Assembly (NCBI GenBank): GCA_965248915.1
Contig: OZ252216.1
Span: 153,091 to 217,090 of the forward strand
Source: Alphaproteobacteria bacterium
Lineage (GTDB): Bacteria > Pseudomonadota > Alphaproteobacteria > M2410
Direction of reading: 5' to 3'
Length of the DNA: 64,000 nucleotides
Part shown: piece after piece, positions 53,040 through 64,000 of the stretch
Numbering within the stretch: the stretch's first letter is position 1
Layout of the letters: each line of letters begins with the position of its first letter
Made by a program: the position numbers and the translations under genes
Notes under the pieces: model-generated
The model's database searches: none
Seen by the model: only the letters and a program-made list of their open reading frames with translations
What the model was told of the DNA's origin: nothing

Positions 53040-53480
53040 TTAGCCTGTGGCGCGGCGACGATCCCGACGGCTTTGTGCCGGTTGGTAAGCTAGGCGCGCG
53101 TGAGCGCTGCAATACGGTGACCCCGCCGTTGTATTGTTTCCACAAAAATGAAATTCATTTGAACCCGGATCGCCAATAGGCCAACGACACATCGACGAAC
53201 TCAATGTCATGACGGTTGCAAACTCACCATTTTCAAGTGTGGCCTCCTCGATGATTTCAGGTTCGCTCACCACGGGTTTTGGCTGCGGCTTTGGGATAGT
53301 CGCGCGTCTTGGCCGATCAACCCGGCTGGTTGTGGCGCGTCCAGACAGTCCCAAACGGTGAACTTTGCCAATCACAGCATTTCGGGTTACATCGCCCATT
53401 GTGCGGGCAATTTGGCTGGCGCTGAGGCCCTCGGCCCAGAGCTTTTTCAGTTGTTCGACCCGATCTTCGGTCCAAGCCAT
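53040..53480 (-). CDS. gcrA: cell-cycle transcriptional regulator GcrA
   Basis: MAWTEDRVEQLKKLWAEGLSASQIARTMG…NAVIGKVHRLGL is the diagnostic GcrA N-terminal DNA-binding domain. ATG at 53480. Confidence 0.85.
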   Translation of the reverse strand: MAWTEDRVEQLKKLWAEGLSASQIARTMGDVTRNAVIGKVHRLGLSGRATTSRVDRPRRATIPKPQPKPVVSEPEIIEEATLENGEFATVMTLSSSMCRWPIGDPGSNEFHFCGNNTTAGSPYCSAHARLAYQPAQSRRDRRRATG

Positions 53481-53557: not shown

Positions 53558-53566
53558 TTATCCACA
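53558..53566 (+). promoter_or_regulatory. perfect DnaA box TTATCCACA about 78 nt upstream of the gcrA start
   Basis: Exact 9-mer consensus read from the sequence. A 7/9 copy (TTATCCAAG) follows at about 53608-53616. Confidence 0.45.
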
Positions 53567-53713
53567 AGATGTCGTGGGTGTGATCGCATTTTATACAAGA
53601 TAGTCCATTATCCAAGCTCAAATTGACCGGATTCTGGAAAGTCGGGCGCCTTGCGAGACTTATTCACATGGAGTATTCCTGATGCCTCCAAGCGATCTGC
53701 GGATCAGCTGACT

Positions 53714-53722
53714 CTATCCACA
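53714..53722 (+). promoter_or_regulatory. DnaA-box-like 8/9 match (CTATCCACA) about 50 nt upstream of the ABC-2 permease start
   Basis: Read from the sequence. Shares the extended core TATCCACAAG with the box at 53558. Confidence 0.35.
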
Positions 53723-61990: not shown

Positions 61991-62111
61991 TTTTGTGCTG
62001 ACGGGAGAGGGTCACATCAAATTGACCACTTAGTGCGATCCGCCAATCCGTCAACAAAAAGCCCTGACATCCAGAAAATCCCTATAGGCCAAACAAACCG
62101 TCAATTTGCCG

Positions 62112-63320
62112 TTACTGGGTATTGAACGCCCTTTGCAAGTCGCGGCACAAATCCTCTCCGTTTTCAAGGCCAACCGACAATCTCAGGAGCCCCGGGCGAA
62201 TGCCGAGTTCCGCCCGCGCTGCCGCGCTGAGTTTCGAATGTGTCGTGGTCGAGGGGTGGGTGATCAAACTCTTAGCATCGCCCAGATTGTTCGAGATTCT
62301 GATGATCTCAAGCTTGTTGGCGACCTTAAAGGCGCGCTCTTTTCCGCCCTCGATCTCAAAGGCAACCACATTACCACCTCGCAGCATTTGCTTCGTTGCC
62401 AAATCCCTTTGTGGATGGTCGGACCGTCCTGGATAGAGAGCCTGGGTCACCAAGGGATGATCGGCCAAGAATTCCGCCACCAATTCAGCGTTGTCGCAAT
62501 GCCTATGAACCCGCAGGTCCAACGTCTCAAGGCTCTTGAGAAGTACCCATGCATTAAACGGCGAGAGGGTGGGTCCAGTGTTGCGCAAGAATGGTTTGAG
62601 ATCTTTGAGAATGAACTCTTCATCATTAGACAGAACAATCCCGCCCAGACACCGACCTTGTCCATCAATGTGTTTTGTCGCGCTATAAATCACAATGTCT
62701 GCACCTAGGTCCAAAGGCTTTTGAAGGATGGGTGTTGCAAAAACGTTATCAACGATCAATCGCGCGCCTGCATTTTTAGCAAGAGCGGCAACAGCCGAGA
62801 CATCCACCAAGCTGACAGTGGGGTTCGAGGGCGTCTCAAGGAAGAACGCCTTGGTATTGGGTTGGATCGCGTCTTTCCAAGCGTCAATGCTCTCGCCGTC
62901 CACCAGTGTTGAAGTGATGCCGAGCCTCGGGCACAAAGTCTCAACAACATATCGACAAGACCCAAAGAGGGCTTTCGCCGCGACAATGTGGTCCCCGGCC
63001 GAAAGAGCCGACAAGAGCGCTGAAGTGACCGCTGCCATACCTGTCGCGGTTGCGCGCGCCAAATTGGCGCCTTCGAGCAGGCACATCCGGTCTTCAAACA
63101 TTTGGACCGTTGGATTTTCAAACCGACTATAGGCAAAGCCGTCATCTTGTTCTTTGAAACGGGCTTCCGCCTGTTCTGCATTTTCGTAGATGTACCCGGA
63201 GGTAAGAAAGATCGATTCGCTGGTCTCGCCAAACTGCGATCTCTGCGTGCCGCCATGTACCTGGCGTGTCTGTGCGTGCCATTCGCGCGCTTTTTCGAGG
63301 TCTTTTGATGTGTCCGTCAT
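62112..63320 (-). CDS. metZ: O-succinylhomoserine sulfhydrylase (Cys/Met-metabolism PLP enzyme)
   Basis: Cys/Met metabolism PLP fold (…IVIYSATKHIDGQG… PLP-lysine region). MetZ-like N-terminus …WHAQTRQVHGG…. Confidence 0.85.
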   Translation of the reverse strand: MTDTSKDLEKAREWHAQTRQVHGGTQRSQFGETSESIFLTSGYIYENAEQAEARFKEQDDGFAYSRFENPTVQMFEDRMCLLEGANLARATATGMAAVTSALLSALSAGDHIVAAKALFGSCRYVVETLCPRLGITSTLVDGESIDAWKDAIQPNTKAFFLETPSNPTVSLVDVSAVAALAKNAGARLIVDNVFATPILQKPLDLGADIVIYSATKHIDGQGRCLGGIVLSNDEEFILKDLKPFLRNTGPTLSPFNAWVLLKSLETLDLRVHRHCDNAELVAEFLADHPLVTQALYPGRSDHPQRDLATKQMLRGGNVVAFEIEGGKERAFKVANKLEIIRISNNLGDAKSLITHPSTTTHSKLSAAARAELGIRPGLLRLSVGLENGEDLCRDLQRAFNTQ

Positions 63321-63334
63321 TTTCGTTGTTCCAA

Positions 63335-63361
63335 TAAAAAACCCGCCTCTGACCGGGCGGG
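63335..63361 (-). terminator. intrinsic terminator/attenuator hairpin inside the metZ 5' leader
   Basis: On the minus strand: CCCGCC-CGGUCAGA-GGCGGG followed by UUUUUUAUU. It ends about 14 nt before the metZ ATG. Confidence 0.5.
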
Positions 63362-63432
63362 GAGAACAACGCCCGACCTTTTAGCGTTTTGAGTTTCCTC
63401 GTGGCCGCAAGCCGGTCGGCTCAAATCACCAC
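63362..63432 (-). promoter_or_regulatory. structured metZ leader; candidate SAM-responsive riboswitch aptamer (SAM-II/SAM-V-like motifs)
   Basis: The leader contains GAUUUGAGCC…GGCUUGCGGCC…AAAACGCUAAAAGG. A long-range helix CCGACC/GGUCGG is possible. GGGCG immediately 3' of it can pair with the 5' arm of the terminator, giving an antiterminator mutually exclusive with P1. Confidence 0.35.
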
Positions 63433-63440
63433 TACTTGGT

Positions 63441-63469
63441 TCAATAGGCGCTCATCGCTTTCACGTCAA
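63441..63469 (-). promoter_or_regulatory. sigma70-like promoter for metZ (TTGACG-N17-TATTGA)
   Basis: -35 and -10 hexamers read on the minus strand with an exact 17-nt spacer, about 110 nt upstream of the metZ ATG. Confidence 0.4.
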
Positions 63470-63684
63470 GAGAGGGCAAGAGATTCGGATCCAATCCAAT
63501 CGACCTTGGGGGTAAGTTGAGCCCGGTTTGGCCCATTTACCATATTCAGCTAGGATTTCTCGGCTTAACTCCGAGGGCGCCCTGTGGATAACTTTGTGGG
63601 TTACTTCCTGCTTGGCTTGCTGTAACACATTGAAATATAAACACAATCCAATCGGATTCGCGTTGAATTTTCCTGGAGTCCCAT

Positions 63685-64000
63685 ATGTCGCGTGCGACAG
63701 GCATTTTGCCAAACCAAACACTCAAAGCCCTCCTGCGGGATGGTGAGATCTTGGGCGATCCGGACATCCTCGCGGATCAAATTCAACCTGCGAGCATTGA
63801 CCTCAGATTGGGCGCTACGGCGTACCGAATACGCGCAAGTTTTTTGCCGGGTCCAGGCCAAGCCGTACGGGACAAGCTTTCAGAAGTCCTTATGCACGAG
63901 ATCGACCTGTCGGAAGGAGCGGTACTCGAACGCGGCTGTGTTTACTTGGTTCCTTTGATGGAGAAGCTCGCACTTTCTGACCGCATCTCAGGTTCCGCCA
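63685..64000 (+). CDS. dcd: dCTP deaminase (long alphaproteobacterial type), 5' partial - runs off the window
   Basis: Manual translation from the ATG at about 63685 gives MSRATGILPNQTLKALLRDGEILGDPDILADQIQPASIDLRLG…. This matches the Dcd N-terminus. The ORF stays open to the window end, so it is absent from the ORF track. Confidence 0.65.
   Translation, partial: MSRATGILPNQTLKALLRDGEILGDPDILADQIQPASIDLRLGATAYRIRASFLPGPGQAVRDKLSEVLMHEIDLSEGAVLERGCVYLVPLMEKLALSDRISGSA

Follow-up and report, generated by a model that had tools for sequence, protein, structure and literature searches.

The 64-kb window analysed here (64,000 nt of contig OZ252216.1 from an alphaproteobacterium) contains upstream of metZ a leader of about 114 nt whose structured element is very probably a canonical riboswitch of the S-adenosylmethionine (SAM) class II (SAM-II; RF00521), acting as a transcriptional OFF switch. 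The analysis shows its family membership, the covariation of its helices, an intrinsic terminator, and a competing partner of the switching strand that recurs among related leaders. The gene, metZ (62112-63320, minus strand), encodes a 402-aa O-succinylhomoserine sulfhydrylase (MetZ; TIGR01325 at 538 bits against a cut-off of 510) with its ATG at 63320, and a reading of 62000-64000 places all of the leader elements on the minus strand, to which the leader coordinates below refer. The feature is an ordinary and already known one: a known element, on a known terminator-type platform, ahead of a known target gene.

Analysis with cmscan identifies the aptamer as a full-length match to RF00521 (SAM_alpha) at 63361-63442 on the minus strand, extending over model positions 1-79. 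It scores 46.7 bits where the gathering score is 36, and the signal exceeds chance because the E-value is 2.3e-7 across both strands of the whole window; a local search with RF00521 gives 1.8e-9. Apart from RF00521, no Rfam 15 family matches at its gathering score anywhere in the 64 kb. SAM-II elements are found in the leaders of methionine and SAM biosynthesis genes, mainly in Alphaproteobacteria, and the element here lies upstream of metZ. SAM-II membership had been suggested by a sequence-only reading of this DNA, from sequence motifs and gene context, and the covariance models bear it out. There is next to no chance that the right assignment is another class of SAM sensor, be it SAM-V, with its similar pseudoknot, or SAM/SAH. 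SAM-V and SAM-II do have an H-type pseudoknot and a binding-site architecture in common, but a permissive covariance search of 63250-63750 (501 nt) at E<=10 returned no matches to SAM-V (RF01826), SAM/SAH (RF01727) or SAM-II-long-loops (RF01726), whereas RF00521 matches end to end; membership in these three families is rejected. Matches to anti-hemB (RF02837) of 13-19.5 bits were also set aside as spurious, being merely the terminator hairpin.

The SAM-II fold is an H-type pseudoknot and all of its parts can be located in the window. P1 is formed by GUGGU (63428-63432) and GCCAC (63401-63405), according to the Rfam structure line and to pair counts in our alignment of 17 leaders (A2, see below), in which columns 4-8 pair with columns 31-35. 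It contains five pairs including a U-G, with an A-G mismatch in place of the sixth, outermost pair. L1 follows as GAUUUGAG (63420-63427), with three U residues in the positions of U10-U12 that are invariant as UUU in the 17 leaders. The 5’ strand of P2a, CCGACC (63414-63419), pairs with 63373-63378, and the 5’ strand of P2b, CUUGC (63407-63411), is invariant in 17 of 17 leaders. L3 (63386-63400) is 3 nt above the consensus length in the Rfam alignment, and is followed by the GCUAAAA box that provides the 3’ strand of P2b (63379-63385; GCUAA is invariant in 17 of 17 leaders) and by the 3’ strand of P2a, GGUCGG (63373-63378), which covariation and folding point to as the switching strand common to the pseudoknot and the antiterminator. 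Pairing of the 3’ tail (GCUAAAA-GGUCGG) with the loop of P1 (CCGACC-GG-CUUGC) gives P2a (six Watson-Crick pairs) and the adjoining P2b, in which CUUGC (63411-63407) is matched with GC-U-AA (63385-63381).

The CCGACC/GGUCGG helix had been recognised earlier as a long-range helix, and it is indeed present, covaries, and encloses exactly 35 nt; the SAM-II-like motifs said to lie inside it, GGCUUGCGGCC and AAAACGCUAAAAGG, are both in that 35-nt stretch. Its designation as P1 did not survive: it is the pseudoknot helix P2a, and the true P1 (GUGGU at 63432-63428 with GCCAC at 63405-63401) had been overlooked. Because the helix is P2a and not P1, SAM would stabilise the pseudoknot (P2a/P2b), rather than P1, in freeing the terminator. 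Minimum-energy folding that disallows pseudoknots is unfit for the aptamer, in that it nests CCGACC/GGUCGG and distorts P1, and was excluded for this part of the leader.

In the SAM-II crystal structure the adenine of SAM is stacked between U21 and G22 and forms a pair with U44, which is otherwise unpaired, and U10-U12 of L1 make triples with P2b pairs and contact SAM (PMC3303485). The window residues U63410, U63409, G63408 and C63407 correspond to U20, U21, G22 and C23, U63383 corresponds to the unpaired U44, and A63382 and A63381 correspond to A45 and A46. All of the SAM-contacting residues (U10-12, U20/U21/G22, C23, G42, C43, U44 and A45/A46) are present in the window and are invariant in 17 of 17 leaders, and from these conserved residues a P2b/L1 triplex is predicted. 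A small alternative hairpin, AACGCU/GGCGUU (63389-63368, minus strand), is also seen in minimum-energy folds; in the absence of ligand it can tie up the GCU of the GCUAAA box that binds SAM. It can coexist with the terminator and may influence apo-state partitioning.

Related leaders were collected in two ways. A genome scan with MetZ yielded 23 loci, and the six closest of these (58-65% MetZ identity; Hyphomicrobiaceae and related metagenome-assembled genomes, and Limoniibacter) have RF00521 matches of 66-74 bits directly upstream of metZ. Ten further relatives were fetched from a MetZ protein search, of which four score 60-82 bits, one (L034) scores 36.2 bits, and five others fall just under the threshold at 31.9-35.2 bits; the core, GGUGAUUUGAGCCGACCGGCUUGCGGCCA...ACGCUAAAAGGUCGG, is plainly present in all ten. 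RF00521 is matched at the gathering score and at the same position in 10 of 16 orthologous metZ loci, with the remaining six at 31.9-36.2 bits, and the relatives include Hyphomicrobiaceae, Pyruvatibacter, Parvibaculum and Chthonobacter. The distant loci that were scanned (L007-L022 and L024-L030; Sphingomonadales, Bacteroidota and others) gave no RF00521 match at the gathering score; L023 was left out of that scan, and no distant loci (L007-L030) entered the alignment. A metagenome scan with MetZ returned seven distant loci only, with SAM-II in none of them.

For the 17 leaders of alignment A2 the pseudoknotted structure was written explicitly and the pairs counted. Standard pairs make up 95.6% of the pair cells, and sliding the partners by 1-3 columns lowers this figure to 21-49%. 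P1 is 98% paired over the 17 leaders and two of its pairs are changed on both sides, with pair 4-35 being GC in 15 sequences and AU in two. In P2a, pair 20-75 is AU in nine sequences, GC in six and GU in one, and pair 21-74 is CG in 11, UG in three and UA in two. The check proposed earlier for CCGACC/GGUCGG, covariation among related leaders, thus has a positive answer in these compensatory A-U/G-C and C-G/U-A changes. P2b is invariant across the alignment, as is expected for a ligand site.

Upstream of the aptamer there is a -35 box, TTGACG (63464-63469), and 17 nt after it a -10-like box, TATTGA (63441-63446, in the context cTATTGa), positioned 7 nt before P1. This is the sigma70-like promoter (TTGACG-17-TATTGA) that had been proposed, and it is found at its proposed place. 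The pattern recurs in 15 of 17 leaders as TTGAC(G/C) at the equivalent position, a spacer of 16-18 nt (17 in most) and a TA element, and in nearly all of them its end is separated from P1 by 5-16 nt. A generic E. coli-type sigma-70 scan of 62000-64000, which uses the E. coli consensus, did not call the promoter, because TATTGA agrees with TATAAT at just three of six positions; we retain it because it is conserved in the orthologous leaders. Near-consensus -35 and -10 elements are usually found a few nucleotides before P1 in SAM-II elements (Corbino et al. 2005, PMC1273637). Judged from the placement of these boxes, transcription probably starts at about 63434, a few nucleotides before P1. On that basis the leader would be about 114 nt long, and the RNA ending at the terminator about 99 nt (63434 to 63336).

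The top match in a terminator scan is an intrinsic terminator at 63336-63361 (minus strand), consisting of CCCGCC (63361-63356), the 8-nt loop CGGUCAGA, GGCGGG (63347-63342) and U6 (63341-63336), with a hairpin energy of -11.8 kcal/mol. It is the CCCGCC-loop-GGCGGG-U6 hairpin that had been described from the letters of the sequence, and its U run ends 15 nt before the metZ ATG (about 14 in the earlier estimate). Equivalent terminators are present in 16 of 17 orthologous leaders. GGGCG (63374-63370), which had been put forward as an antiterminator, is complementary to the 5’ arm of this terminator, and the pairing extends to 9 bp between GGUCGGGCG (63378-63370) and CGCCCGGUC (63359-63351), forming a hairpin at 63351-63378 (minus strand) with a 10-nt loop. 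For the stretch of nascent RNA between and including the P2a 3’ strand and the terminator loop, this hairpin is the minimum-energy fold (-12.7 kcal/mol, with -14.4 for the duplex alone). Among the 16 leaders having a terminator, folding of the nascent RNAs predicts pairing of the P2a 3’ strand with the terminator 5’ arm in 15.

The mechanism that we infer from this arrangement takes in SAM binding, the transcription start site, a kinetic competition and the direction of regulation. Transcription would start a few nucleotides before P1 from the TTGACG-N17-TATTGA promoter, and when SAM is abundant it would bind at the P2b/L1 triplex and lock the pseudoknot, with GGUCGG held in P2a. With GGUCGG held, the CCCGCC...GGCGGG-U6 terminator would form and transcription would stop about 15 nt before the metZ start codon, releasing a leader RNA of about 100 nt and leaving metZ OFF. 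At low SAM the tail would be free as the polymerase advances, and GGUCGGGCG would capture the newly made CGCCCGGUC containing the terminator 5’ arm; this antiterminator would block the terminator and allow read-through, with metZ ON. The OFF-switch logic of the sequence-only reading holds to the extent that the exchange between terminator and antiterminator recurs in relatives and agrees with published accounts (PMC1273637, PMC2258182, PMC9373788), and fails in taking P1 for the ligand-stabilised helix.

Several observations weigh against a functional SAM-II transcriptional switch. The complementarity of the window antiterminator is equalled by 327 of 2000 composition-preserving permutations of the 9-mer (16%), and is not statistically distinctive in the window alone; in the L002-L006 clade the direct antiterminator duplex is no better than permutations, and in the closest clade 1.5-6% of permutations pair as well. 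Taken alone, pairing between a G-rich strand and a C-rich arm is therefore weak evidence. Equilibrium folding slightly favours the terminator state even with only the tail free (-26.8 kcal/mol, with the AACGCU/GGCGUU hairpin), and antitermination must therefore be kinetic if the exchange operates as proposed; kinetic switching is the norm for transcriptional riboswitches. The window aptamer scores 46.7 bits, compared to 60-82 bits in typical orthologues, and in their 2007 survey Barrick and Breaker described the SAM-II control mechanisms as then without experimental establishment.

Because the permutation test is not significant either for the window or for L002-L006, we adopted a test based on mimicry of the P2a 5’ strand by the terminator. 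In each leader the terminator arm copies, exactly or in a wobble-compatible form, that leader’s own P2a 5’ hexamer: CCGACC/CCGACC in L033-L035, CCGGCU/CCGGCU in L036, and CCGACC/CCGGUC in the window. Of the 17 leaders, 16 have a CCGRYY sequence 8-28 nt downstream of the P2a 3’ strand, where the background expectation is 0.07 per 25 nt. This recurrence supports a conserved competitor for the switching strand, and the support for the antiterminator in the window is comparative.

The lower score of the window results from the A-G mismatch in the outermost P1 pair, one extra nucleotide before P2a, and the 3-nt insert in L3. The same mismatch, insert and score would fit a decayed or non-binding relic of an aptamer, with the hairpin being a plain terminator or a protein- or Rho-assisted attenuator unresponsive to SAM, as would a terminator that is thermodynamically favoured regardless of the pseudoknot. 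We consider this highly improbable. Every ligand-contacting residue and all of the P2b pairs are intact, P2a retains six Watson-Crick pairs by way of a compensatory A-U pair, and the promoter-aptamer-terminator layout is kept in relatives whose MetZ proteins are 58-73% identical. Loop insertions account for the score deficit; at that site the closest relatives carry still larger inserts and retain the core.

These L3 insertions are a feature of the closest metZ relatives, in which L3 is 18-28 nt long, compared to a typical 11-12 nt, and contains a hairpin of variable sequence (-2.9 to -8.6 kcal/mol). In the window the corresponding mini-hairpin, GAG-GAAA-CUC (63400-63391), is predicted as (((....))) and is marginal at -1.4 kcal/mol; it could be a vestigial version, or remnant, of the hairpin in the relatives. 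SAM-II cores with the L3 hairpin insert are located at L031:464-559, L032:475-560, L033:470-560, L034:465-559, L035:461-555 and L036:478-564, with scores from 31.9 to 36.2 bits, five of them under the gathering score of 36 and one about level with it. The hairpin insert is what causes them to drop to or below the Rfam threshold, and annotation of SAM-II in this alphaproteobacterial clade is probably incomplete. The RF01726 model describes SAM-II elements with long loops from Bacteroidetes and marine sequences (Weinberg et al. 2010, PMC2864571) and resembles the present case in that SAM-II cores tolerate enlarged loops, as with the 18-28 nt L3 of the closest relatives of the window. It differs in that the model matches neither the window, with an insert of just 3 nt, nor the insert-bearing relatives, there being no match at E<=1 in L031-L033, L035 or L036.

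A second level at which the leader could act is the ribosome-binding site (RBS). In the minimum-energy fold a candidate RBS-occluding helix pairs GUUGUUCU (63370-63363) with GGAACAAC (63332-63325) and encloses the terminator (63325-63370, minus strand). The duplex has an energy of -10.4 kcal/mol and is equalled by 32 of 5000 and 1 of 5000 permutations; folding places it in the terminator-type fold, with the RBS free in the antiterminator-type fold. Comparable RBS-side complementarity is present in L031, L039, L002 and L035, but not in L032, L033, L034 or L036. It is quite improbable, in our estimation, that the output of the SAM-II riboswitch is chiefly translational, with SAM-dependent folding hiding the RBS and the hairpin and U-tract acting as a constitutive attenuator. 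A translational mode is documented for other SAM-II members, namely the crystallised metX SAM-II and S. meliloti metA (PMC3326309, PMC9373788), and the helix over the RBS region beats nearly all permutations and forms in the terminator-type fold but not in the antiterminator-type one. The Shine-Dalgarno of metZ, however, lies outside the P2 3’ strand, about 45 nt downstream and beyond a strong terminator, and the occluding helix is absent from four of the closest relatives (L032, L033, L034 and L036) whereas almost every leader has the terminator and the CCGRYY mimic. RBS occlusion would be at most a second layer atop termination control, and as such a layer is speculative. A broader proposal, that control is two-tiered, with GUUGUUCU clamping GGAACAAC to silence read-through transcripts, and that the L3-hairpin elements form a separate and unrecognised alphaproteobacterial SAM-II subclass missed by Rfam thresholds, we regard as doubtful.

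Termination control by SAM-II has published counterparts, and the closest is the metZ SAM-II element of Sinorhizobium meliloti and its RZ small RNA (Scheuer et al. 2022, PMC9373788), which has the same gene and the same aptamer class. In S. meliloti a SAM-dependent Rho-independent terminator is predicted to form upon SAM binding, and the RZ RNA of about 100 nt, which is more abundant in rich medium (PMC9373788), compares with the product of about 99 nt predicted here. The window differs in belonging to another lineage, in its 3-nt L3 insert, and in the possible RBS-occluding helix around the terminator. The founding SAM-II member, the Agrobacterium tumefaciens metA element (RF00521; Corbino et al. 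2005, PMC1273637), has the same P1 plus P2 pseudoknot and a promoter a few nucleotides before P1, together with a terminator between P2 and the open reading frame and OFF-switch logic (PMC1273637); the gene is metA there and metZ here, and the window has the outer P1 mismatch, one additional nucleotide before P2a and three in L3. The Sargasso Sea metX SAM-II (2QWY; PMC3303485, PMC3326309) has identical binding-site residues, including the UUU of L1, the U-U-G-C of P2b and the unpaired U of GCUAAA. It differs in being translational, with the Shine-Dalgarno in the P2 3’ strand, whereas in the window the P2a 3’ strand competes with the terminator arm.

The host belongs to a poorly sampled alphaproteobacterial lineage. 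No other protein in a set of 5.8 billion exceeds about 73% identity to the window MetZ, and the best MetZ relatives in the protein search are about 70% identical. Downstream of metZ is folE, and on the other side dcd, coding for a long-form dCTP deaminase, diverges from 63685 on the plus strand, leaving an intergenic region of 365 nt between dcd and metZ. The order dcd / metZ / (apaG or folE) / trkH is kept among relatives, with dcd / metZ / apaG-or-folE in most of the ten fetched. No tRNA genes were found in the 64-kb window.

The dcd-metZ intergenic region contains other conserved sites. A block at 63583-63642 (minus strand) is almost invariant among relatives about 70% identical in MetZ, and reads TTTATATTTCAA...GTTA...GCCAAG...CCCACA-N5-TTATCCACAGG, with a perfect DnaA-box 9-mer at 63591-63583. 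The relatives also have ATGGTTAAC, containing the CtrA-like motif TTAACCAT (the window has ATGGTAAAT), and TTACCCCCAAGG. From their sequences these conserved boxes are probably cell-cycle regulatory sites for transcription of dcd or metZ. A replication origin at this spacer was considered and rejected, as there is a single perfect DnaA box and no informative turn in GC skew, and DnaA-like 9-mers occur in the window at chance frequency (12 found, 10.1 expected); the DnaA box is more likely a regulatory box than part of an origin. An exact 11-nt direct repeat, CGATTGGATTG, is also present in the intergenic region at 63654-63644 and 63502-63492 (minus strand), 152 nt apart, and is weakly conserved in relatives. 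Elsewhere in the window, three DnaA-box-like 9-mers (TTATCCACA, TTATTCACA and CTATCCACA) lie within 165 bp of intergenic sequence (53558-53722, plus strand) upstream of gcrA (53040-53480, minus strand; Pfam GcrA at 168 bits). A circuit from DnaA to gcrA is known in Caulobacter, and by analogy the arrangement of these boxes resembles it.

Beyond its correct annotation the element matters little. The link between pseudoknot and terminator was described in a 2007 survey as lacking experimental establishment, and the copying of the P2a 5’ strand by the terminator 5’ arm provides a simple, checkable rule for how the SAM-II pseudoknot is wired to its terminator. For the organism, the leader sequence suggests that SAM would exert feedback control on metZ by way of a textbook SAM-II terminator switch, in a poorly sampled alphaproteobacterium.

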